DNA of 59,207 bases, filler included, from an uncultured virus (IMG/VR IMGVR_UViG_2049941000_000702) (taxonomy: Duplodnaviria > Heunggongvirae > Uroviricota > Caudoviricetes). It is 19 parts of one record of this genome, joined end to end, with 100 filler letters (N's around TTAATTAATTAA, not from the genome) between each part and the next. Parts side by side here need not be neighbours in the genome. Positions count along the whole stretch, not along the records: positions 18,192 to 21,352 come from IMGVR_UViG_2049941000_000702; 18 more parts are not named here. One strand, written 5' to 3'. The notes beneath the pieces were generated by a model. The model made no database searches, was not told the origin of the DNA, and was given only the letters and a program-made list of their open reading frames with translations. This document shows, in pieces, positions 6,468-39,153 of this stretch. How positions within the stretch are numbered: position 1 is the stretch's first letter; every line of letters starts with the position of its first letter. Made by a program: the position numbers and the translations under genes.

Positions 6468-8166
6468 GGGTAGGCAGCTTAAAAGCATGAGCAAGACCGA
6501 AGGCAGCGACACCGTGACGATGGAGTTTACCTACAACCATGCCGGACTCAGGACAAAGAAGGTTAAGAAGGTAAACGGCATCGTCGCTGAGACTACCGAG
6601 TACATTCTCAACGGCAAGAACGTGGTGGAGCTGATCCATACGAACCATGCGACAAGCGTAACGAACAAGTTGCACTTCTTCTACGACACCCAGGACAAGC
6701 AGGCCATGGTGGAGTTTAACGGAGTCAAGTACAGCTACGCCTACAACCTGCAGGGCGATGTGGTCGGTATCGTTGACAGTACGGGCAATGTGGTGGTAGA
6801 ATACAGCTATGATGCGTGGGGTAAGCCGATAGCTACCACAGCAAACAGTACCTTGACAACTGAATTGGCTGAACTTAATCCCTTTAGGTACAGAGGATAC
6901 ACGTGGGATCAGGAAACGGGATTATACTACCTCAGAAGCAGGTATTATGCTCCGGAAATAGGTAGATTCTTGAATACTGATTATTCCAATGGTGCTATAG
7001 GCAGTGTTCTCACGCATAATCAGTTTACGTACTGCATCAATAATCCCATTTACCTTTCAGACGATAATGGCACTTGGCCGAGTCTTTCTAAGCTGTTAAA
7101 GAAAGCAGCACAGGCGGTTTCCGCAGCTGTGGAAGTAGTAGCAGAAGCATTGCCTGTTGTAGCTGCGGCAGTAGCAGTGGCTGCTGTAGCCGTTGCAGTC
7201 GTTTATGCAGCTCCGTTAGCGGTATGTACTCTTACAACAGGCTTGGCTGTTGCTGGGGTAAGCACTGGCGTAGCAACGGTAGCGGCAAAGATTGGTGTGG
7301 TAACTGCCGCTACATTGACAATTGTTTCAGCTGCTGATACTGCGTGTGTTGCCACAACGGGCGTTAGCCCTGTAAGGGAATATGTATTCCAAGGCAATCA
7401 GGATGCCTATGAAGCTTTCCAAATGGTCAGTGCCACTGCTTCAGCGGGACTCTTCAGCGCTGCTTCAGCATCTCCAGGAGTATGCTTCGTTGCAGGAACA
7501 CCGATATCGACAGAAAACGGTTTGGTTCCAATTGAACAAATTGTTGCTGGACAGCTGGTATGGGCAGAAGACCCGGAAACAGGCGAAAAGGCCTTAAAAC
7601 GAGTCATCAGAACATTTATTAATGAGAATGATGAGCTCATCCATATAGGCATTAATGGTGAGTCAATATCATGTACAACTGAGCACCCATTCTATGTAAT
7701 AAGTCGAGGTTGGGTTGCAGCGAAAAGATTGAGAATAGGAGATAAAATAGAGCAACAGACGGGATCTGGTGTTTATGTTGAGTCAATAGTATATGAAAAA
7801 TTAGAAAAGCCGATACTGGCTTATAACTTCGAAGTTGAGAAGTATCATACTTATTTTGTAGGTCTTAACGCTATGCTCGTTCACAATAAGTGTGGAGATC
7901 CAGGTCATTATGAAATTGAGTATAGCGATGGTAAAAAGTATATTGGAAAAGGAAGTGTTGGAAGGATGAATGTTTCCATTAGAATGCACGCGGCTCCGGG
8001 TAGAGAGTTGGTAAGCGCGACATGGGTAATCTCTGATAATAACAAAATGGCTTTTGTTGATGAATATCTTGCAATGAGAGAGGCAGAATTTCCCGATAAC
8101 CCAAATCTGTTGAATAAAATACAGAGTCCAGGGCTCTTATATTGGCTACAAATGGGAGGGCACTAA
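6468..8166 (+). CDS. RHS-repeat polymorphic toxin with Hint domain and GIY-YIG-like C-terminal toxin (5' partial)
   Basis: RHS core NPFRYRGYTWDQETGLYYLRSRYYAPEIGRFLNTD; hydrophobic segment; Hint CFVAGT...YNFEVEKYHTYFVG...VHNKC; tip GHYEIEYSDGKKYIGKG..RM. Confidence 0.9.
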
Positions 8167-10399: not shown

Positions 10400-11207
10400 G
10401 TCTTGCCCTTGACGGCAGAGGACCAGGCCGTTCGCTATGGACGTCTCCAAAATGGTGTATATGACCGTACTTGCCCGTGCCCTGTTGGGCGTATCGGTGA
10501 TTAACCAGTTCTCTCTCGACCGACGACAATCGTGTGAANNNNNNNNNNATACAGCGCTTTGATCCGATCGGACTTGTTCCCGCAGAAAAGAAAGATCGAT
10601 GTCTCATCAACCTTTTGTCCAAATTGCAGCTCTACTACTGCCACCAACCCGTCGATCTGCTTGCGCATGTCCGTATGTCCGCACGCTATGTAGTAGTTCT
10701 GCACCCTGCTGAAGTCAAGCATGGCGGTTCAGCGCCTTTACCAGTTCAGCTATGCTCTCCGCGTTGACGCCCGCCGGCAGTATAATACTGCTCTCTCCGT
10801 GCCGGATCGTTATGCCCGGCACACCGGTCTCACACTCGTCTCCTGGCAGTTGGTACGGATCGATGCGCGTCAGTGGCCCTCTTTGTCCTGGCCCAGGTAA
10901 AGCATACTGCTTACAGGCTGTTTTTACTATCTGCCTTTCCCAGTTGTAATATGTCTTAAGCGCTATGCCTTGTTCCGCACACCATGCCTTTACTCCGCTG
11001 CCACTGCTCCGGCACTCAGCTACCCGCACCGACCATTCTTGCAGTCTGGCTGCATGCTTCAGCTCCTGCACACTTCCGCCCATCTTAATGTGTCCCTCCA
11101 TTCTTTGTCTTTCTCGTGAATCTTCTCGGGAATTCTCGGGAATTCTTGGGACACTATTATCTCATCTTTCTCTTACATCCGCGAGGTGTGCTTTATTTTG
11201 CGCTTAC
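10400..11207 (-). mobile_element. IS66-family insertion sequence (left end, tnpA, partial tnpB, degenerate tnpC tail)
   Basis: Terminus GTAAGCGCAAAATAAAG at 11207; TnpA 10715-11101 (W...V.ECRSSG..VKAWCAEQGI...YYNW); TnpB 10549-10722 (CGHTDMRKQIDGL...FLFCG); frameshifted TnpC piece GRE/NWLITDTPNRARASTVIYTILETSIANGL at ~10420-10538. Confidence 0.9.
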
Positions 11208-12169: not shown

Positions 12170-13043
12170 CCCGCCGCTGAAATCCCGCTGCCGGATCATG
12201 TCCTGAACCCGGTCGAAGATTTCAGGCTCAATGATGGCATCGTGGTTGTTCTCCACATAGTACTGCGGGACTTCTCCGTGATTGGGCACCTGTTTCTTCG
12301 TCAGGAAATCCGGAGTGTAGGTCTTCTGGAGCAGGGCGCAGCCTTTGTACTTCTCGTTCGTCAGGATACTCCTGACCGTTGTCTGGCTCCATTTGTCCTT
12401 CCCGCGAGGAGTCTTGATGCCCATGCTGGTCAGTTTCTCTGCAATGGCATTGCAGGACAGCCCCGTGAGGAATTCGCCGAAGATCAGCCTGATGATCTTC
12501 GCCTGCTCCTGATTCACGACCAGATTCCCGTCTTCGCCTTTGTCATACCCAATGAAGTTGCTGTAGGCAACACTGACCTTGCCGTCCGCCATCCGTTTCC
12601 TGTGGCCCCATGTCACGTTTTCAGAAATGCTCCGGCTCTCTTCCTGGGCCAGGCTGCTCATGATGGTTATCAGCAGCTCCCCTTTGCTGTCGAATGTCCA
12701 TATATTTTCCTTCTCGAAATATACCTCAGTGCCGTGCTCTTTGAGCATACGGATTGTTGAAAGACTGTCCACCGTGTTCCTAGCGAAACGGCTGACGCTC
12801 TTCGTGATGATCAGGTCGATCTTACCCGCGAGTGCGTCTGCGATCATGGACTGGAAGCCTTCCCGTTTTTTCGTACTGGTACCCGTCACGCCCTCGTCCG
12901 AGTACATGCCCGCGAACTCCCAGTTCTCATTCCCCTGAATAAGATTGGTGTAATAATCCAGCTGTGCCTCATAACTGGTCTGCTGCTCGTCATGATCCGT
13001 CGACACGCGCGCATACCCGGCGACCTTCCGCTTACTCTGGGCG
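12170..13043 (-). CDS. Large serine recombinase / integrase (partial)
   Basis: VAGYARVSTD, ITKSVSRFARN, LAQEESRSISENV and recombinase domain ILTNEKYKG. Confidence 0.95.
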
Positions 13044-18191: not shown

Positions 18192-19226
18192 CTCTCCGGT
18201 AGGCATTATACGGGTGACTACATTGGTGGTATCCACGTCGTAGGACACGCTCTTAAGATTCTTGCCCTCGCGTATCTCGATGTCCGTATCCTCTCCGACG
18301 CGCTCCACCACGTATACGTCGTACCAATCCCTTGTAAGCTCGCCGCCGTATACGGATATGAACCCCTCGTCGCCCAGTATGGCGTCAATGGGGTTCTTAT
18401 GCGTTACAGAGAACTCGTCGGACTGAGTGGTTATGTCCGAGTGGAACGAGAACTCGGTATCCGTCCGGCACGCGGCGCCTATTCCGTCCAGGGCTTCGGC
18501 AGCCCTGTCATTCGCACCGGGCTTATATGACTTTATGAAGTTGTCCAGCAGGTCATAAAAGATATGTCTTGCGTATACCGTCACCTTATTCAGCTCGGGC
18601 ACTACCCTGTATATACGAAACAGCTGTTCCCTTAACTGCCTGCTCTCGACCACTTCGCCCACTATGGTCCTTATCTCCGTGGAGTGGTACACGTTGCTGG
18701 CGCACCATGCGGGGATATATCCTGTCACTCCGTCATAAGTCGTGACCTTATACCATGTGGACACGGAGCGTGTGGTGCCCTGGGCGGGTGCGCCTGATGG
18801 ATATGTGGACGTAGAGTAGGAATAGCTTTCCCCGGTAGCGGTGGTAGTTATGGTGACTACATATATCGATCCCAGCACGGCGCAGCGGTGTCCGGAGTAA
18901 TATGTGCCTATTATCTTATAATTGAACCCGGCCTGTATCCTGACCTGGGCGGTCTGGGTTATCCTCCACACGCCACGGGAGGTCTTGTCCAGCTTTATCC
19001 GCTGGTCCGGAAGCTTGACGTACGGCGTCATGGCTTCAGGCACGGGCACCCGCAGTATGCAGCCCACACTGAGCCTGATCCACTTGCCCGCTTCGTCGAT
19101 CGGGTGCTCCAGCGTGACCTCATACCCGCCGTTCAGGGTCTCAGTCACGGTACAGGACGACGGCGTGAGAGTGCCCGCGCCATTGGTGCTGAAGTCCGTA
19201 CAGTCGGGCGGATATATGCAGATCAA
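18192..19226 (-). CDS. Tail spike / Tal-like (prophage endopeptidase tail family) N-terminal part with SH3-like insert
   Basis: MICIYPPDCTDFSTNGAG.L.P..C.V.E.LNG.YE..LEHP, QLFRIYRV, VYARHIFYDL, IREGKNL; GGAGG RBS. Confidence 0.85.
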
Positions 19227-19350: not shown

Positions 19351-19581
19351 CTATCTCAGATTATGGTAGTAATTCATCGGTTCGACTCCGAACAGATCGA
19401 ACAGAGTCTGGTTCGTATCATGTTTATCGTCACCGTGACTTGGGTCATAGTTGAAGAAGTAGCCGTTTATAAAGAACTGGCAGCAACTGTCAGTCGCGGG
19501 ATAAAGCTCATACCGAACGCCTTCGGAATCATTAATGATCAGNNNNNNNNNNGCTGACAGCAAAACGAAAGCCTTTTTCAT
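19351..19581 (-). CDS. Putative exported cargo protein (gapped)
   Basis: MKKAFVLLS start with GAGGTG RBS; the two halves are separated by a gap. Confidence 0.45.
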   Translation of the reverse strand: MKKAFVLLSXXXXLIINDSEGVRYELYPATDSCCQFFINGYFFNYDPSHGDDKHDTNQTLFDLFGVEPMNYYHNLR

Positions 19582-19620
19582 ATGAAAGCACCTCGCGTCT
19601 TTTCTTAATTCGACGCAGAG

Positions 19621-19839
19621 TCAACGAATATGTTCCGGCTTGCGAACGCATTGGCCGGATGGGGATTTTCGCGGCGGTCTAACACGCCTGAATTTTAAAG
19701 CTCTCTCGGGCGTTGTTTCGGGTCAGTTTTCATCAAATGTGATCGGCATTTTCCTCGCCTTGTCCAGCCGCTCCATTTCCTCTTCGGTAAAGGGTAATTC
19801 CTTCTTTATCGTCTCATGAAGATCAGTCATATTTACCAT
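19621..19839 (-). pseudogene. BrnA-antitoxin-like small protein with internal TGA
   Basis: FTEEEMERLDKARKMPITFDEN*PETTPERALKFRRVRPPR; the recognisable motif continues past TGA at 19723-19725. Confidence 0.55.
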
Positions 19840-19890
19840 AATACAGCCCCATTTCAAAGTTGGTAGCCATGATTCTTTGTCAGGTAGCTC

Positions 19891-19919
19891 TTGCAATTTA
19901 CCCAAAACTGTAATATACT
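19891..19919 (+). promoter_or_regulatory. SigA promoter of candidate sRNA copy 1
   Basis: TTGCAA-17 nt-TATACT. Confidence 0.75.
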
Positions 19920-19926
19920 GATTGAT

Positions 19927-20004
19927 GAGGTGCCAACTCGCCGCGTGACTGCGGGATACAAATCGTCAGCGAAACCGGCTCAGGACAGTCCTCCAGCCGG
20001 TTTT
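19927..20004 (+). ncRNA. Candidate small structured RNA (H-type pseudoknot plus terminator)
   Basis: Starts 8 nt after the -10; first 38 nt identical to 31290-31327; CCGC/GCGG stem, loop UGAC pairs with GUCA; ends in AAACCGGCU...AGCCGGUUUU hairpin. Confidence 0.65.
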
Positions 20005-20013
20005 ATCTTATCA

Positions 20014-20719
20014 TCATAGCGCTACCCATCTGGGCTTTATCATCACAGACGTCACGTTCCCGCCCGTCCAGCTGACGGCCGTGTTGCCCGCGCCCAGCAC
20101 CGGGAACTCGCCAGTCATTTGTGTGTTTTTAAGCTCATTCCCATAATAAGCCTCCTGCAGCTCGCTGTCAAGCGTTATGCCGCTTTCTATACCCGTCAGC
20201 TGTATTATCTTCGTGCCCACGAGCAGGGTTATGTCCCCGCTGCCGGTGATCGTGATCAGTGGTTTAGCCTGTATGCCGGTGGGATTTAGCAGGAACGAAC
20301 CACTCGTTATCTCCTGCTCCTCTTCCCCACTGTACAGCCGCAGGAACGGCTTGCAGCGGAAGCTCACGGTGAACGTACGGGGTGTGTTTCCCCGCAGGAT
20401 CTTAGTGAACGGTATCTGGTTTATCACCCGTGCCTCGTAGTATCCGTCCGGCCTGCTGGGCAGTTCCAGCCTGCCACTGCCCCGGAAATACGCGGCTATC
20501 TCCGCCACCGCCGACGGAGTCGGATCGGGGCAGTAGCACTTGACTGCCAGAGTGATGTCTTTATATACGTCCGTTCCCTCAGTCTGAGTGAGCGAACCGC
20601 TCTGCCCGGGCACGTCAGTGAACGTCACCCGTTCCTCAGGCAGTACTATCTCCGGCAGCTCGGTTACGGTTATATCTATCGTCCGGCTGCTTATCCCTTT
20701 CCAGATTATGTAGTCCTTC
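20014..20719 (-). CDS. Distal tail protein (Dit)-like, variant 2 (complete)
   Basis: MKDYIIWKGISS...PRWVAL*; a third partial copy lies at 33672-33882. Confidence 0.88.
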
Positions 20720-20800
20720 ATCATCCAGCTCCCATGAGACCAGGTACTGTCCGGTCTCCCGTATGAGTTTCGCCCTGAATACCGCAACGCNNNNNNNNNN

Positions 20801-30464: not shown

Positions 30465-31160
30465 GGTACGCGCCGTCCTTGAGCACAAGACCACGAGCAA
30501 AATTCTCAAACGGAATTCCGTCGATGCGGATGTGACAGACACGGGTATCGTTCATTCCGCACGGCTCGAAGATCTCTTTTTGCATAAAATCCTCGAATGG
30601 CATACCGGATACTTTTTCGACGATCTCCGCAAGCAGGCAGTAGGCCGTGTTGGAGTATTCGAACTTTTCACCCGGTGCAAACAGCGGTTCCTGTCCGCAT
30701 TCTTTCAGAAAACGCACACAAAGGCTGTTGTCGGGCGTACCGTCCTCGTCCTTGAGCGTTTCCATCGCCCACTCCTCATGATCGGGAAGGCCACAGGTGT
30801 GGGTCAGCATATGTCGGATCGTGATCCCGTTATACGGGTTTTCAGGGAAAAACTTGCTTAACTCGTCCTCCAAAGAAATCAGCCCTCTCTTGCGCAGCAG
30901 CATGACCGCCGCAGCGGTAAACTGNNNNNNNNNNNNNNNNNNNNNNNNNNNNNNNNNNNNNNNNNNNNNNNNNNNNTGCTGACGGAAGCAAGTTCAAAGA
31001 TGCTCTCCTCCACAACGGGCAGCTTGTCCTCCGGATCACGAAAACCGACCGCACCCTTGCCAACTATCTCGCCATTCTCGGCGTATAGCCACGTGCCGGT
31101 GAAAACGTCCTTTTCATGCGCCTCGCGGACAAGGTTTTCGAACATGGTTTTCTTATCCAT
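30465..31160 (-). CDS. Serine hydrolase (beta-lactamase class C/PBP-like), variant A (gapped)
   Basis: FELASVS(K)QFTAAA, ITIRHMLTHTCGL, FAPGEKFEYSNTAY (YxN). Confidence 0.9.
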
Positions 31161-31254
31161 GCAGATCGCCTCCACAGGTTCCGATTTGTACAGTTATTCT
31201 ATCACAATGTCTCGTTCTAAGATAGCATATGAACATGAAATTTCAGAACTTACC

Positions 31255-31327
31255 TTGCCAAAATGCGTTCTAGGGCATATAATAATACCGAGGTGCCAAC
31301 TCGCCGCGTGACTGCGGGATACAAATC
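31255..31327 (+). ncRNA. Candidate sRNA copy 2 with promoter (truncated by gap)
   Basis: TTGCCA-17 nt-TATAAT, then the same 38 nt as 19927-19964 starting 7 nt after the -10. Confidence 0.65.
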
Positions 31328-32075
31328 NNNNNNNNNNNNNNNNNNNNNNNNNNNNNNNNNNNNNNNNNNNNNNNNNNNNNNNNNNNNNNNNNNNNNNNNN
31401 NNNNNNNNNNNNNNNNNNNNNNNNNNNNNNNNNNNNNNNNNNNNNNNNNNNNNNNNNNNNNNNNNNNNNNNNNNNNNNNNNNNNNNNNNNNNNNNNNNNN
31501 NNNNNNNNNNNNNNNNNNNNNNNNNNNNNNNNNNNNNNNNNNNNNNNNNNNNNNNNNNNNNNNNNNNNNNNNNNNNNNNNNNNNNNNNNNNNNNNNNNNN
31601 NNNNNNNNNNNNNNNNNNNNNNNNNNNNNNNNNNNNNNNNNNNNNNNNNNNNNNNNNNNNNNNNNNNNNNNNNNNNNNNNNNNNNNNNNNNNNNNNNNNN
31701 NNNNNNNNNNNNNNNNNNNNNNNNNNNNNNNNNNNNNNNNNNNNNNNNNNNNNNNNNNNNNNNNNNNNNNNNNNNNNNNNNNNNNNNNNNNNNNNNNNNN
31801 NNNNNNNNNNNNNNNNNNNNNNNNNNNNNNNNNNNNNNNNNNNNNNNNNNNNNNNNNNNNNNNNNNNNNNNNNNNNNNNNNNNNNNNNNNNNNNNNNNNN
31901 NNNNNNNNNNNNNNNNNNNNNNNNNNNNNNNNNNNNNNNNNNNNNNNNNNNNNNNNNNNNNNNNNNNNNNNNNNNNNNNNNNNNNNNNNNNNNNNNNNNN
32001 NNNNNNNNNNNNNNNNNNNNNNNNNNNNNNNNNNNNNNNNNNNNNNNNNNNNNNNNNNNNNNNNNNNNNNNNNNN

Positions 32076-32624
32076 CACATCATAATCAAAAATGTGCGAT
32101 CTCCTCAGGTGAAATCTGTCATTGAAGCTCTTTTCCGGTCTCCCGTATTCTACAGCAAGGTATTTTGCCGCCCTGCGCGCTGTCGGGAAATAAATGCGTT
32201 TCCCGTTACCCATGAGCGTCACAGGATTGATATGACCGCCGTTCCCGACCGCGAGATTGGCGAGCAGTTTATCCACGAAACAACCGTAATCTCTGTTGAG
32301 CATCTGCTCACTTTTGGTCACATATCTGAGATTGTGCCAGTCATTGTTCAGGCTGTTTCGGTCTATATGATCTACCTGCATGCCTTCCGGTCTTGGACCG
32401 TGCCAGCATTCAGCCACGACCCTGTGAACGAACACTTTCCTTATGTGCTTCTTTATGTTTACCTGCGTGCACCAGTACTGCGTATTGCTGTTATGGGATT
32501 TCTTGAAGAGCTTAAGGTGTCTTTTCGATTTCACGTTCCTGATGACGGTCCCGTTGCTGGTGACCTCATACAGAAATTGCAATGATGGAATCTTCCGAAA
32601 CTCAAGGTTTAAGCTTTCGCTCAT
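32076..32624 (-). CDS. HNH homing endonuclease (NUMOD4/I-HmuI-like), intron-encoded
   Basis: YEVTSNG.IRNVKS, VHRVVAECW...QVDHIDRNSLNNDWHNLRYVT.SEQ..N; GGAGG RBS. Confidence 0.9.
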
Positions 32625-33029: not shown

Positions 33030-36000
33030 AGAATCTGCCGAAAGCGGTGAATACCTTTCCCAGCGCGCCGGTGATATATCCCAGGTTCTTTATGAGGGTA
33101 CCGGATATGAGGATGACCGGACCTATGGCCGCCGCTATGCCCGCCCACTTGACGATGCTCTCCCTCTGGCCGGCATCCAGCCCCATGAAGGCCGAGATCA
33201 GCCCGTTCGCTTTATCCATAAGGGATTCCAGTGCGGGCGTCAGGTCCCTCGCGATCTGCCTGCCGGCGACGAGGGCACGGTTCTTAAGATTCGTAAGCTT
33301 GGCCGAGAGCGTATCATACTTTACCGCGGCGGATTCCGCAAGCTTCGTATTCTCGTTCCATGCTTCTATGGCAGTCTTCTGTGTTTCGGCGAACAGCTCC
33401 GTAGCGTTGGTGGCTCTTAAGAGAGTATCCCTCAGCCTGATCTCGCTTATGCCTATATCCTGCAGGGTAGCGATGGCGCTGACGCCTTCGTCACCCAATC
33501 GTGCCAGACCCACGATGAACTTCTGGAACACATCCGAAGGGTCTGCTTCCCACATGCGCACGAACTCTTCTTCCGTGAGCCCGCACACATTCGCAAAGTC
33601 CGTAAGCGCGTCCCCGCCGGTCGCAGCCGCCACTTCCATTTTGACCAGGGCTTTGGAAAAGNNNNNNNNNNCCGCCGGCGTTGGATCAGGACAGTAACAT
33701 TTCACCGCCAGGGTTATGTCCTTGTACACATCCACGCCCTCGGTCTGTGCTAAGGAGCCGCTCAGCCCCGGGATGTCGGTAAACGTCACCCGCTCCTCAG
33801 GCAGGATGATCTCCGGCAGCTCGTTCACCGTGATGCCGACTGTCCGGCTGTTGATTCCTTTCCAGGTTATATAGTCCTTCATTCTCCGTCTCCCATGAAA
33901 CGCGGTACTGTCCGGTTTCCCGAACCAGTACCGCCTTGAATACGCTCACACCGTGGCCAAGCAGGTTGTCCGCCATGGCCGCGGCCGCGTGGATATCGTC
34001 AACGATCGTCGTTCGCATTGTTTTCCATCNNNNNNNNNNTCGCCTACGCGCTGAACAATATACACGTCGTACCAGTCCCGGGCCAGCTCCCCGCCGAAAG
34101 TAGCGATGACGCCCTCGTCGCCCAGATAAGCGTCGATGGGATTGGTATGTTCGACAGAGAATTCATCCACGGTGGAGGTCAGGTCGGAATAGAACCTGAA
34201 ATCCGTCTCCGTTTCACAAGCTGCGCCGATACCCTTGACCACTTCCGCGCCGCGATCATTCTGTCCCTGCGTATAGGTCTTTATGAAGTTGTCCAAAAGG
34301 TCATAAAAGATATGTCGGGCATAAACGGTGATCTTGTTTAATTCCGGCACGACCCTGTATATACGAAAAGGCTGATCCCGCAGTTGTTTGCTCTCGACCA
34401 CATCGTGCACGATGGTCTCGATGCTCTCGGAATGATAAACGTTCGAGCAGGAATATCCCGGAACCCAGCCGCTCAGACCGCTCGGTGCAACGATGTGGTA
34501 CCAAATGGCGACGGTGCGCGTATAGTTTTCCGGGACGCTGTCTGTCGGGTATGAGCTATACCTTTTGACGTAATCCTTTGTCGCATCCGTTTTGTGTTTG
34601 AAGGTGGCGAAGTACTCGCTGTGATCGACAGCGATCTTCACGCCGGCGTCGACTGTGCCGATGATTTTACCGTTGCCGGANNNNNNNNNNNNNNNNNNNN
34701 NNNNNNNNNNNNNNNNNNNNNNNNTTAATTAATTAANNNNNNNNNNNNNNNNNNNNNNNNNNNNNNNNNNNNNNNNNNNNCGTGATCACGCCTTCGCCGA
34801 AACCGGCCATCGCCATCGCGCCGATCTCGTCACGGAATACATGGGACGGGGAGTGTATCTGCAGCGCTTCCTTTGCTGCCGCTACTGCCGCATTTGCCAG
34901 CGCTGTGATCGCAGCGGTGACTGTTGCCGTCCCGCTTGTAATGCCTGCCGCCAGTCCTTCTGCGATCGACGCGCCTATGGGCATGAACCGCCTGGCCGGT
35001 GAATTGATTCCGGCCGCCGCGCGCATGGCTTCGTCCGCTTCGTCCACCTTGTCTTTCGCCGGACCGGTTACGTCTGTCTGGCCCATGCCTGCGTTCACGC
35101 CTTCTCCGTATGCCGCACCGACTTCGCTTCCCGCATCCGCAGCCTGGTCCTTTATGGGGTCATACTTCGCGAACAGCTCGGTGAAACGCTGCATCTCCCC
35201 TTCCGTCAGCTTATCCAGGCCTCCCAGCTGCTTTAAGTACAGTCCCGCGAATTCCGCCTGCTCCCCGGGATTGCTGATCCTGCTCAGATCGATCATCCCG
35301 GAGAACAGCTCATCTTGCATGGCTTTGGCTATGGTGTAATCCTGTATGATCCTTTCCAGGGCTTCGTCTATCGTGGTATCCGTTGCGTCTATACCCTCCA
35401 GCATCAGCCCGTTGCGTATGGTGCTCACCAGATCGTAGTTCTCCGGATCTTCGCCCAGCTCCCGTACCGTATCCATGACGGAGAACAGCTCCTGGGCATC
35501 CCGGACAAAGGAAAGCATCTCATCATCCAGGTCCATTCCGTTCCGCATGGCGTCCACGATGGTCAGCAGAGCATTGGAATAGGACTCAACCTGCCCGCTG
35601 TTTATATACGCACTTGTCATCCGGGATCTGGATAATCCCAGAGGTCCGAAGATGTTCCTGCCCAGCCATCCCGTCGCGGCGTATACGGCGTTGTCGCCTC
35701 TAAGGCTGGCTGCCGTGCTCCTGTAGTGCCCGGTCATGGCCTGTATCATTTCGGAAAGCGTTTCACTGTCCGCTATGCCCCAGCCCAGGCCGTGTGTCTC
35801 CTGCCCGGCCTCTTTCAGCGCTTCCGCCGCTGCCCGGGCATCCTCCTGGGTCGCTTCCGCCCACTGAGGCTTGACCGTCACATGATATACGCCGTCCTGA
35901 TCCNNNNNNNNNNAGATCGACGACATCCGTTTTGCCCTTGCTGTAATCCGACAGCAGCGTGACCAGCTCGGACATCTGTCCGTAGGTCCTTTGGATGCCC

Positions 36001-38701: not shown

Positions 38702-39153
38702 CCCGGCTGCCGCGCTCATCCAGCGTGATCGTATGATGAGCGCCTTCCGCCTTTCTGGCTTCGATTGGTTCCACGACGACATATGTCCCCAACGGCAGCA
38801 CCCTCGCCAGGAGGGCGGGCACCTTGATTTCGGTACCCTTACGCTTACGAGCTTTTATGTCGGATATTCGTCGACTGGCAGGTTTNNNNNNNNNNGGTAT
38901 CCTAGGCATGGCTGTACTGACCTCCCGCGGTATTGCGCCCCATCTCAGGAGCCTTTCCCGCTCTTTACCGAGCTTCATACGGCGGAATAAACGCATTCGG
39001 TCGCATGTCGGAGTATCAGAGTCTTTGTAACCCCTCACGCGGGGTCAGACAGGAATTTCACCTATCAAATCAGCGCAAAGTTCAATTTCCAATTTAGAAA
39101 TTGGCCTGTTTTATTGCGCGTTTCTGCGCAGATTGTCAGGCAACAGAGCGCAC
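38702..39153 (-). mobile_element. Group II intron, 5' part (domain I), inserted in the major tail protein gene
   Basis: GUGCG start at the point where tail-protein homology breaks; GGUGAAAUUCC motif; EBS1 GUCGUC (38775-38780) pairs with exon GAUGAC; EBS2 CGAAU (38866-38870) in a hairpin loop pairs with exon AUUCG. Confidence 0.75.

Follow-up and report, generated by a model that had tools for sequence, protein, structure and literature searches.

A conserved putative pseudoknot RNA unit in rumen prophage cargo islands: a predicted small RNA gene and candidate orphan CptI-like antitoxin

We describe a compact unit that is very probably a stand-alone, expressed small RNA gene, to judge from its sequence signals. 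It was found in a 59,207-nt stretch of DNA from an uncultured virus (IMG/VR IMGVR_UViG_2049941000_000702), which we call the window. A 38-nt block that occurs twice in the window would represent the 5′ two-thirds of this self-contained gene, which would consist of a sigma-A promoter, a 14-nt leader, a 28-nt H-type pseudoknot and an intrinsic terminator, and would produce an RNA of about 80 nt from the + strand. This anatomy is conserved across unrelated flanking sequences. We propose that the product may be a single-unit, toxin-less (‘orphan’) RNA resembling a type III antitoxin, that it would be made constitutively, and that it would sequester a CptN-type endoribonuclease encoded elsewhere, by the host, a rival phage or a plasmid. 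The carrier would then be shielded from the toxin, which would give the RNA an anti-abortive-infection or anti-addiction function. For this explanation as a whole, a small RNA gene that acts as an orphan CptI-like antitoxin, we estimate a probability of about 0.35. The neutralization of a CptN-type toxin, taken as the job of the RNA, is a tentative proposal that draws on analogy with CptI.

An earlier note on this DNA had reported that the block is identical at 19927 and 31290 and that the DNA upstream of the two copies is unrelated. Both observations were borne out by comparison. The 38 nt match exactly at 19927-19964 and 31290-31327, both on the + strand, these are the only two occurrences in the window, and 0 of 100 shuffles gave a match. 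Since copy 2 is interrupted at 31328 by a run of 748 Ns, ‘38 nt’ tells us where the sequence breaks off, which is not the end of the repeat. The window itself is strung together from short contigs, with linkers of the form N44-TTAATTAATTAA-N44 as well as 10-N and longer gaps, so the two copies may come from different genomes; the unbroken stretch around copy 1 spans 19553-20790. For the same reason, the tail-operon setting claimed in the note stands for copy 1 and could not be extended to copy 2. An overlap at a de Bruijn graph branch may well be the cause of copy 2 stopping at the gap. We rejected the idea that the duplicate is merely such an overlap, as the element is intact on unbroken MAG contigs. 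Our model of the RNA (R1) scored 77.8 bits on copy 1 and 53.9 bits on copy 2, despite the truncation of the latter by the N run.

Table 1. Features of the RNA unit and its surroundings in the window.
Feature	Position	Strand	Detail or basis
Tal-like tail protein, N-terminal part	18192..19226	-	Prophage_tail + SH3_3
Small divergent ORF	19723..19905	-	39-60 aa; past the RNA unit, leads the cargo genes on the strand of the tail genes
Copy 1 promoter, sigma-A-type	19891..19919	+	TTGCAA 19891-19896, 17-nt spacer, TATACT 19914-19919
Predicted small RNA, copy 1, ~80 nt	19927..20006	+	Ends inferred from promoter and U-run
Single-stranded leader, 14 nt, GAGGUGCCAACUCG	19927..19940	+	Shine-Dalgarno-like 5′ end
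Predicted H-type pseudoknot core, 28 nt	19941..19968	+	Direct sequence reading
S1	19941-19944 paired with 19951-19954	+	CCGC/GCGG
L1; junction	G19945; U19950	+	Direct sequence reading
S2	19946-19949 paired with 19965-19968	+	UGAC/GUCA
A-rich loop	19955-19964	+	Direct sequence reading
Intrinsic terminator hairpin, into UUUU	19971..20004	+	-18.3 kcal/mol; TTTT 20001-20004; faces Dit 3′ end
Dit, distal tail protein, convergent with RNA	20017..20721	-	phrog_33, E 4e-29; stop 20014-20016
Copy 2 promoter	31255..31283	+	TTGCCA 31255-31260, 17-nt spacer, TATAAT 31278-31283; 11/12 consensus positions
Copy 2 of RNA, leader + most of pseudoknot	31290..31327	+	Cut by N run at 31328

The claim that promoters of the SigA type with 17-nt spacing precede both copies was confirmed; the hexamers are of the sigma-70 type, and the -10 element ends 7 nt before the predicted RNA start in copy 1 and 6 nt upstream of the block in copy 2. 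The region upstream of copy 2 is homologous to that of a chromosomal copy (L017, see below). A terminator directed at the convergent Dit gene was likewise found behind copy 1, as a hairpin that runs into TTTT and ends 10 nt short of the Dit stop codon. A simple terminator scan missed this hairpin because the scan accepts loops of 3-8 nt only and the loop exceeds that limit. Lambda OOP is another short phage RNA that runs from promoter to terminator; unlike OOP, the window RNA stops short of the coding sequence of its convergent neighbour. The assertion that the RNA contains no ORF has to be qualified: a mechanical frame of 42 aa exists at 19891-20019, and it is not conserved.

We examined ten copies of the unit, two in the window and the others in four MAGs of rumen Clostridia (three in G001, two in G002, two in G377 and one in G276). 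When the window is compared with the MAG copies, the 42-nt core is 93-100% identical, whereas nucleotide identity is 79-86% for the adjoining Dit gene and about 50% for the 100 nt upstream. Eight of the ten copies have a -35 element, a spacer of 17-18 nt and a TATAAT or TATACT that ends 6-8 nt before GAGG/GAUG, and the promoters of these eight belong to six unrelated upstream sequence families. One of the two promoterless copies is decayed: its promoter spacer measures 9 nt, S1 contains a mismatch and the terminator is missing. The other (L013) is a 3′-UTR copy. In 8/9 copies with downstream sequence, a hairpin of -15 to -36 kcal/mol leads into a U-run, and the terminators found at this same place are of at least four unrelated sequences. 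On direct reading, the U-runs and the terminator G-U pairs of two copies (L012 and L017) fit the + strand only. The unit that the note had described, with a promoter, a core able to form a pseudoknot and a terminator, is read from the + strand and is conserved across contexts in the copies examined. Its folding energy does not stand out (z -1.69 on the + strand, z -2.03 on the - strand). Two poly-A RNA libraries from gut metagenomes (X19 and X20) gave contigs over 19920-20004, 19926-20002 and 19876-20026; DNA may be present in such libraries, and these contigs extend into promoter DNA and past the terminator and reveal neither strand nor ends.

The pseudoknot layout that had been proposed, with S1, S2 and an A-rich loop, agrees with our direct reading at the same positions. 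Both stems are unchanged in 8/8 intact copies. Five of the 28 knot positions vary among these copies, and all five fall among the 12 unpaired positions and none among the 16 paired ones. A loss of 3 nt from the loop of L017 leaves GUCA still available to pair with UGAC. Invariant stems with variation only at unpaired positions fit a pseudoknot. Because the stems never vary, covariation in S1 and S2, which the earlier note had named as a check, is absent in the eight intact copies, and the fold rests on complementarity and on the placement of the variation. The leader is identical in five of seven intact leader-bearing copies with full sequence, the exceptions being L004 (one additional C) and L017 (GAUG), and it is missing from the 3′-UTR copy. 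From its start to the GCGA directly before the terminator, the unit measures 46 nt. A putative GA/A processing site (cleavage at the slash) lies 3′ of the knot in 5/8 copies.

The likeness to CptI that the note had suggested held up in a by-eye comparison with printed sequences. CptI of E. rectale folds into an H-type pseudoknot of 45 nt, in which L1 is one base (G13) and L2 is an A-rich stretch of 9 nt, AUAUAAAUG; this L2 requires both A29 and U30, a kink that faces outward. One CptI repeat alone is fully antitoxic (Rao 2015). The printed E. rectale repeat contains S1 as CCAC/GUGG and a loop with UGAC, followed by GUGGU, AUAUAAAUG and GUCGG, and the Abiotrophia repeat has S1 as CCGC/GCGG followed by UAUAAAUGA (Blower 2012 NAR Supp. 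Table 1). The order in the window core is CCGC, G, UGAC, U, GCGG, G-AUAYAAAY-C and GUCA. On this reading, the GC-rich S1, the single-G L1, the AUAYAAAY loop and S2 agree with the published repeats, and in the by-eye alignment the variable Y of the window loop takes the kink position of CptI. Like the CptI RNAs of cptIN loci in E. rectale, C. catus and R. torques, the window RNA is predicted to be transcribed from a promoter as far as an intrinsic terminator and to fold into a compact H-type pseudoknot. In this predicted fold, S1 is GC-rich and has 4-5 bp, L1 is a single G, the A-rich loop of 9-10 nt has a pyrimidine at the kink position, and S2 arises when the hairpin loop pairs with the letters directly after the A-rich loop. 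The unit lengths are also similar, 46 nt here and 40-48 nt in CptI, and in both cases the hosts are gut and rumen Clostridia. A terminator follows the RNA in 8/9 copies with downstream sequence, and -35 and -10 elements are placed for a start at the RNA in 8/10 copies, as expected of a cptIN antitoxin.

There are also differences from CptI. The 33 published cptIN loci are all chromosomal, and cptIN loci have 1.9-3.4 tandem repeats of 40-48 nt (Blower 2012 NAR). In contrast, the window RNA is a single unit that resides in prophage cargo islands. All matches of model R1 are single: no tandem matches occurred in nine genomes of the genus of G001 (E up to 5), in 151 family genomes or in 17 genomes of the genus of G377, and Tandem Repeats Finder reported nothing at the locus. 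The S2-bearing loop has 6 nt, compared with 10-11 nt in CptI, and a conserved leader of 14 nt stands where CptI has a 6-nt tail; the CptI model does not account for this leader. Finally, no toxin gene lies past the terminator. The next gene is convergent in 8/8 intact copies (Dit three times, GDPD, GNAT, a 204-aa ORF, a 447-aa ORF and an SH3 protein), so that none of them has a toxin gene directly downstream on the same strand, which upholds the note on this point. The NCBIfam names of the 64 window ORFs include no type III toxin. A search of three MAGs for the Pfam ToxN family had no match, a result that says little because the control itself was positive in 0/14 genomes.

CptI is excised by its own toxin after an adenine, which leaves a 2′,3′-cyclic phosphate, and then neutralizes that toxin. 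The specificity of CptI antitoxins is high, and a non-cognate CptN is not inhibited by them. Because of this specificity, a distant look-alike of CptI would neutralize nothing without a cognate toxin. The suggestion in the earlier note of a decoy against abortive infection goes one step past the evidence, because no abortion of phage infection by cptIN loci has been demonstrated (Blower 2012 NAR). We infer that the RNA may act as a protein-binding knot of the CptI kind.

If the antitoxin reading is true, no orphan antitoxin gene of type III would have been described before these. To our knowledge, type III RNA antitoxins are known only beside their toxins. The sole known phage mimic, pseudo-ToxI of Pectobacterium phage PhiTE, is protective only after laboratory selection: the wild type, with 1.5 pseudo-ToxI repeats, is sensitive and can evolve into an antitoxin mimic, and protection is seen only in laboratory escapes that have 4.5-5.5 repeats or a captured ToxI, in which pseudo-ToxI neutralizes the toxin in trans and the phage escapes abortive infection (Blower 2012 PLoS Genet). 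Like pseudo-ToxI as described there, the window RNA comes from a toxin-less, phage-borne stretch in an intergenic gap that resembles a type III antitoxin repeat. Pseudo-ToxI mimics ToxI and not CptI, whereas the window RNA resembles CptI, has its own promoter and terminator, and is conserved in many contexts, also outside phages. Further differences would be its recurrence in prophage cargo islands, its over-representation in metagenomes from cattle rumen and its apparently natural origin. It would then be a natural RNA counter-defence or anti-addiction gene, and the poorly understood cptIN family would gain an ecological role that is testable. Should the antitoxin reading fail, the unit would still define a small RNA family that is new, compact, well preserved between copies and clean in its gene anatomy.

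The strongest alternative, which we consider possible but doubtful, is that the unit encodes an ordinary trans-acting base-pairing regulatory RNA of the Firmicute type. The knot would then stabilize the RNA or bind a chaperone, and either the 5′ end, which is Shine-Dalgarno-like, or the C-rich loop of the terminator would provide the seed that pairs with the ribosome-binding sites of target mRNAs. C-rich loops do serve as seeds in Firmicute small RNAs. The promoter-to-terminator anatomy and the occurrence outside prophages suit such a regulator, and so do the terminator loops, which are unrelated in sequence and yet all C-rich: CCUC or CACC is present in 7/7 leader-bearing copies with a terminator and in two further loose-end terminators, and is missing from the loop of the leaderless copy L013. 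However, the best-conserved part of the unit is the knot with its leader and not the loop, and a short seed would need less than the near-invariance of 42 nt across contexts. Pairing between the leader and the terminator loop was not consistent across minimum-free-energy folds.

The distribution of the copies bears on a further alternative. Most copies lie in islands of cargo or defence genes that split prophage tail modules between Dit and Tal, and the cargo differs from site to site; the Dit-Tal junction of these prophages is a cargo hot spot. In two contigs (G001:C27 and G377:C163) copies form direct repeats around cargo blocks of 2-3 kb, and the closest pair is 2.1 kb apart. The element is not phage-only, since the chromosomal copy L017 lies between purF and a glycosidase-like gene and L013 is a 3′ UTR. 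Sequencing runs, by contrast, speak for the small RNA gene. In a bovine-gut DNA run (X1), the summed contig depth over 19931-19972 was 1252.8, compared with 155.3 and 121.3 in neighbouring bins, and in a bovine-gut DNA run from a different study (X5) it was 152.9, compared with 13 and 68.2. Contigs from the runs diverge from the block into other promoters before 19927 and into other terminator hairpins behind 19967-19980.

The further alternative is that the core acts mainly as DNA, as a recombination junction or crossover site where related prophages would swap cargo modules, and that the RNA signals are incidental. The sharp breaks in homology at the core edges (19927 and 19967-19980), the direct repeats around cargo that differs per site and the partial dyad symmetry of the core all point in this direction. 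We nevertheless consider it improbable. A crossover site needs neither a correctly spaced promoter at one edge nor a terminator at the other, and here these are rebuilt from unrelated sequences in 8/10 and 8/9 copies, respectively. Moreover, no recombinase is constantly associated with the element, and the decayed copy has lost its promoter spacing, S1 pairing and terminator together. The RNA-gene and DNA-level readings can be compatible, with a conserved RNA gene that doubles as a homology patch. Combining this with the antitoxin reading, one may speculate that rumen prophages spread a natural family of stand-alone, single-unit CptI-type antitoxin RNAs, transcribed constitutively, which disarm the CptN-type ribonucleases used by hosts and rival elements for defence or addiction, and that the core is also a homology patch for the exchange of cargo islands in tail modules; we think this combined scenario rather unlikely.

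It is quite improbable, in our judgement, that the RNA is an anti-CRISPR or solitary repeat unit, in which the hairpin, together with a GGGAUAUAAACCG tail, would pass for a CRISPR repeat and so occupy Cas proteins. Racr have been described as small RNAs that imitate the RNA partner of a host defence protein (Camara-Wilpert 2023 Nature). In that description, the Racr layout is a phage-borne promoter followed by one repeat-like unit and a terminator, which corresponds to what is seen here, and the window RNA is likewise a single-unit non-coding RNA with a hairpin on a mobile element. Additionally, model R1 aligns every type I-E repeat of E. coli K-12 to its positions 19-43, CCGCG..GCGGG-GAUAAACCG. 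Unlike Racr as described there, however, the window core is only weakly like a CRISPR repeat: the alignment is worth about 2.1 bits per I-E repeat, the best score of 8.0 bits is due to spacer letters, and the I-E repeat lacks both the UGAC/GUCA pairing and the leader that are invariant in the window RNA. No arrays of the core were found in 401 family genomes, nine genus genomes and three MAGs (shorter pattern), and Cas1 was found in none of three MAGs, which are incomplete, whereas the control was positive in 7/14 genomes. The genomes searched, with the MAGs being incomplete, contained no host CRISPR array with a repeat closely similar to the core.

A short or leader peptide read from GTG 19945 (V/M-T-A-G-Y-K-S/P-S...), with GAGGUG as its ribosome-binding site, is hardly credible: the strong Shine-Dalgarno-like hexamer at the 5′ end, the change of GTG to ATG in L010, the in-frame silent changes of ACT to ACC (L006) and TAC to TAT and the frame-preserving 3-nt loss in L017 speak for it, but GTG follows GAGGUG at a distance of 12 nt, a spacer that is conserved as strongly as the ‘codons’, the four-fold degenerate sites of GCG, GGA, TCG and TCA do not vary, within the terminator the reading frame is shifted by a 1-nt indel between the first window copy (W1) and L005, the frames stop after 22 to 98 codons with unrelated tails, and L013 keeps the core without a Shine-Dalgarno sequence or promoter.

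The RNA family is uncatalogued and is so far found only in rumen Clostridia. No Rfam 15 family reached its gathering threshold at the locus, the best match being SBRMV1_UPD-PKf, which scored 20.1 bits (E 0.12) where 39 would have been needed, and Proteo-phage-1 (RF03044) and every other Rfam model had no match there even at E up to 10. A match to a known riboswitch, which the note had named as a refutation, did not appear. We found no match in a viral contig collection with two DNA patterns or the Dit protein, none in JGI metagenome contigs with the two patterns and none to the element in GenBank phages, and plasmids gave only chance-level pieces (E about 9). As these public collections yielded nothing, the family is known only from the four MAGs, the window and the sequencing runs. 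In the family scan, model R1 matched one of 151 genomes, the centre genome G001, which is itself a carrier, and in the genus of G377 it matched one of 17, G377 itself. A match in G002:C339 was discarded as a further copy; it is an unrelated terminator that adjoins a tRNA gene. The only window match at an Rfam gathering threshold is a piece of a group II intron at 38914-39061.

The window Dit shares 84-89% identity with its counterparts at three MAG loci. The small divergent ORF had no match in Pfam and PHROG searches, and the 90-aa protein encoded upstream of the UTR-type copy L013 has six unnamed relatives and belongs to no family. In the window, the Tal-like gene is linked to the RNA segment solely across a 10-N gap. 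In L012, which is one unbroken contig, the gene order is Dit, RNA, cargo and Tal.

The element is real, has the anatomy of a gene whose RNA would read along the + strand, and is best described as a member of a family, absent from Rfam, of stand-alone small RNA genes in rumen Clostridia and in prophages of these bacteria. Pattern and model searches gave ten copies: two in the window and eight in rumen Clostridia MAGs (three in G001, two in G002, two in G377 and one in G276). A promoter (a -35 box, a spacer of 17-18 nt and TATAAT or TATACT) is present in eight of the ten, its box ending 6-8 nt before a conserved GAGG/GAUG, and these eight promoters lie in upstream sequences of six unrelated kinds. 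Of the nine copies with downstream sequence, eight carry a strong hairpin with a U-run behind it, and the hairpins stem from at least four unrelated sequences. The U-runs, together with the G-U pairs of the terminators at loci L012 (in G001) and L017 (in G276), are consistent with the + strand only. Between window and MAG copies, identity is 93-100% over the 42-nt core, 79-86% (nucleotide) in the adjacent Dit genes and about 50% in the upstream 100 nt. Over the full 80 nt, folding energy is unremarkable (+ strand, z -1.69; - strand, z -2.03).

Two copies depart from this plan. The copy G001:C27:5749 (L012 5733-5786, +; 45.4 bits with R1, our model of the RNA) is decayed: it has a 9-nt promoter spacer, a mismatch in S1 and no terminator, all three lost together, and can serve as a natural pseudogene control. 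The G002:C272 copy (L013 725-1050, -) lacks leader and promoter, keeps knot and terminator, and comes after a 90-aa zinc-ribbon-like ORF, behind its stop codon. Thus, it is a 3'-UTR form, and the ORF and knot may make up a protein-RNA pair whose order is reversed. The ORF has only six relatives in the protein collection, all unnamed.

The earlier note had reported a 38-nt block identical at 19927 and 31290, a promoter with a 17-nt spacer before each copy, and a terminator of copy 1 facing a convergent Dit gene. All three features were recovered. The block has two exact copies (19927-19964 and 31290-31327), and 0/100 shuffles gave a match. The promoter of copy 2 consists of TTGCCA, a 17-nt spacer and TATAAT, which ends 6 nt before the block. 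In copy 1, 10 nt separate the terminator end from the Dit stop codon, and the hairpin was absent from a simple terminator scan because its loop is longer than the scan allows. Copy 2 is truncated at 31328 by a run of 748 N; thus, 38 nt marks the end of the data, not the end of the repeat. The window is not one genome stretch: short contigs have been chained artificially, with 31 pairs of 44-N runs flanking a TTAATTAATTAA linker, besides longer N gaps and many joins of 10 N. The unbroken stretch that holds copy 1 is 19553-20790; that of copy 2 has only 351 bases (30977-31327). Neighbouring pieces are often unrelated: a Dit N-terminus abuts tape-measure sequence over a 10-N join (about 33662-33671), and the Dit contig is linked by N's at 20791-20800 to a histidine-kinase-like fragment. 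Gene order is not to be trusted wherever an N run intervenes.

Features of the RNA gene and of other pieces in the window
Feature	Position	Strand	Remarks
-35 TTGCAA, copy 1	19891-19896	+	followed by 17-nt spacer
-10 TATACT, copy 1	19914-19919	+	ends 7 nt before block
S1 CCGC/GCGG	19941-44 / 19951-54	+	
L1, single base	G19945	+	
S2 UGAC/GUCA	19946-49 / 19965-68	+	
Junction, copy 1 knot	U19950	+	
A-rich loop GAUACAAAUC	19955-64	+	
Terminator hairpin, copy 1	19971-20004	+	-18.3 kcal/mol, UUUU at end
Distal tail protein Dit	20017-20721	-	convergent with RNA; phrog_33, E 4e-29
HNH_3 homing-endonuclease-like ORF	32076-32624	-	E 1e-16; across N gap from copy 2, C-terminal end hidden by gap
RHS repeat-associated core domain protein	6469-8163	+	among phage pieces
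IS66 TnpA-like fragment	10718-11101	-	among phage pieces
Large serine recombinase fragment	12170-13042	-	among phage pieces
Group II intron piece	38914-39061	-	Rfam group-II-D1D4-5, 39.3 bits vs gathering 34.5; among phage structural gene fragments

The RNA element is rare and patchy among the genomes searched. The block had no match in IMG/VR, JGI metagenome contigs or GenBank phages, and plasmids held only chance-level pieces of it. A Dit protein search led to three contigs in two rumen MAGs, a Clostridiales bacterium and a Clostridia bacterium from water-buffalo reticulum. The pattern matched in three of the 401 genomes of the family of G001 and in three of the nine of its genus. Model R1 matched in one of 151 genomes sampled from the family, namely G001, the centre genome and itself a carrier, and in one of 17 from the genus of G377, which was G377 itself.

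Contigs of four metagenome runs, two bovine-gut DNA runs from different studies (X1 and X5) and two RNA libraries, were placed on 19553-20790. In both DNA runs, summed contig depth over 19931-19972 greatly exceeded that of the neighbouring bins: it was 1252.8 in X1, which is probably the source sample (neighbours 155.3 and 121.3), and 152.9 in X5 (13 and 68.2). The contigs diverge from the block at 19927, where they carry other promoters, and at 19967-19980, where they carry other terminator hairpins. One alternative terminator type is that of the chromosomal copy L017, whose upstream 110 nt share homology with the DNA before window copy 2. Judging from this homology, the N gap after copy 2 probably hides an L017-type terminator. 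The contigs of the two RNA libraries cover the unit with promoter DNA included, and are thus not counted as transcript evidence.

The RNA can form the H-type pseudoknot that had been proposed for it, with both stems and the A-rich loop. Covariation, the suggested check, has no stem variation to act on, because neither S1 nor S2 varies among the eight intact copies. Five of the 28 knot positions vary (L1 G/A, junction U/C and three in the loop); by hand count all fall among the 12 unpaired positions and none among the 16 paired, for which the chance with random positions is about 0.008. The loop of L017 is shorter by a loss of 3 nt, and a GUCA is still present to pair with UGAC.

No family in Rfam 15, riboswitch or other, matches the RNA unit at gathering thresholds, and at E up to 10 the best sub-threshold match is a plant-virus pseudoknot (20.1 bits vs a threshold of 39). 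The likeness to CptI that the earlier note pointed out does hold, by eye, against the printed repeats. E. rectale CptI is a 45-nt H-type pseudoknot with a single-base L1 (G13) and a 9-nt A-rich loop (A27-G35) in which A29 is required and the kink U30 faces outward, and one repeat alone is fully antitoxic (Rao 2015). Consistent with that numbering, its repeat has S1 CCAC/GUGG with UGAC in the loop, then GUGGU, AUAUAAAUG and GUCGG; the Abiotrophia repeat has S1 CCGC/GCGG, then UAUAAAUGA (Blower 2012 Supplementary Table 1). The rumen RNA reads CCGC, G, UGAC, U, GCGG, G-AUAYAAAY-C, GUCA. Judged by eye, element order, the single-G L1 and the loop core are alike, and the variable Y of the rumen RNA falls at the CptI kink. 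From its 5' end to GCGA the rumen RNA measures 46 nt, within the CptI repeat range of 40-48 nt. Tests for the two defining features of a type III locus, an adjacent toxin gene and a tandem array, found neither. Thus, the unit is not a cptIN locus, and is at most a stand-alone RNA of CptI-like form.

A role as an orphan CptI-type antitoxin is the most specific interpretation that the data permit for this RNA, and we propose it tentatively, at a probability of about 0.3. The pseudo-ToxI of phage PhiTE is a precedent for a toxin-less antitoxin-like RNA (Blower 2012 PLoS Genet), and our literature search, which covered its sources in part, found no published description of toxin-less CptI-like RNAs. 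Three points argue against an orphan antitoxin. A CptI antitoxin does not cross-inhibit CptN toxins other than its cognate one, and cptIN is not known to abort phages (Blower 2012). No cognate toxin was found (ToxN family in three MAGs, with the control silent; 64 window ORFs), nor any tandem R1 matches in nine genomes of the genus of G001. As had been noticed at first reading, no toxin gene lies beside the unit: the gene behind the terminator is convergent in 8/8 intact copies, and no neighbour protein is constant across copies.

A base-pairing small RNA is a serious rival to the orphan antitoxin. The 5' end is Shine-Dalgarno-like, and the terminator loops (19971-20004 and those of other copies) are all C-rich and mutually unrelated in sequence. 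CCUC/CACC, which is complementary to part of the GAGGUG at the 5' end, occurs in the terminator loop of every leader-bearing copy; the loop of the leaderless copy is without it. We regard a pure DNA crossover site as improbable, as it leaves unexplained why unrelated DNA has been rebuilt into promoters and terminators; the conserved core of the RNA gene may double as a homology patch. That the RNA mimics a CRISPR repeat is very doubtful. The hairpin and the tail GGGAUAUAAACCG recall the E. coli I-E repeat, and every repeat of the E. coli I-E array aligns to R1, but scores are only about 2.1 bits and the I-E repeat has no S2 partner. Moreover, no arrays with the core were found in the 401 family genomes, the genus of G001 or the three carrier MAGs, and cas1 was found in 0/3 carrier MAGs, all of them incomplete. 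Translation of a short peptide from GTG 19945 is scarcely credible: some silent-looking changes are compatible with it, but an indel shifts the frame, tails run 22-98 codons, four-fold sites are invariant and one copy has no Shine-Dalgarno sequence.

On unbroken MAG contigs, cargo genes stand in groups on either side of the small RNA gene and break up the tail module between Dit and a Tal-like protein. Among the cargo are GNAT acetyltransferases, DUF218, an AbiEii and DUF6577 pair, a weak BrnT-like protein, MerR, LytR-CpsA-Psr, a GDPD phosphodiesterase, a transglutaminase-like protein, DUF4153, and DUF2975 with an HTH protein. In these rumen prophages, the tail modules look like a cargo and defence hot spot within a structural operon. 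In the window, a beta-lactamase-family fragment and an HNH endonuclease lie beside copy 2. In G276 no prophage is visible around the unit, which has purC/purF on one side and a 447-aa glycosidase-like ORF on the other. Same-strand cargo spans about 6.9 kb from Dit to Tal in L012 (G001:C27 1-8646), and in L001 cargo also precedes Dit. Across L012, L011 (G377:C163), L014 (G002:C23) and L001 taken together, the cargo also includes a HipA-like protein.
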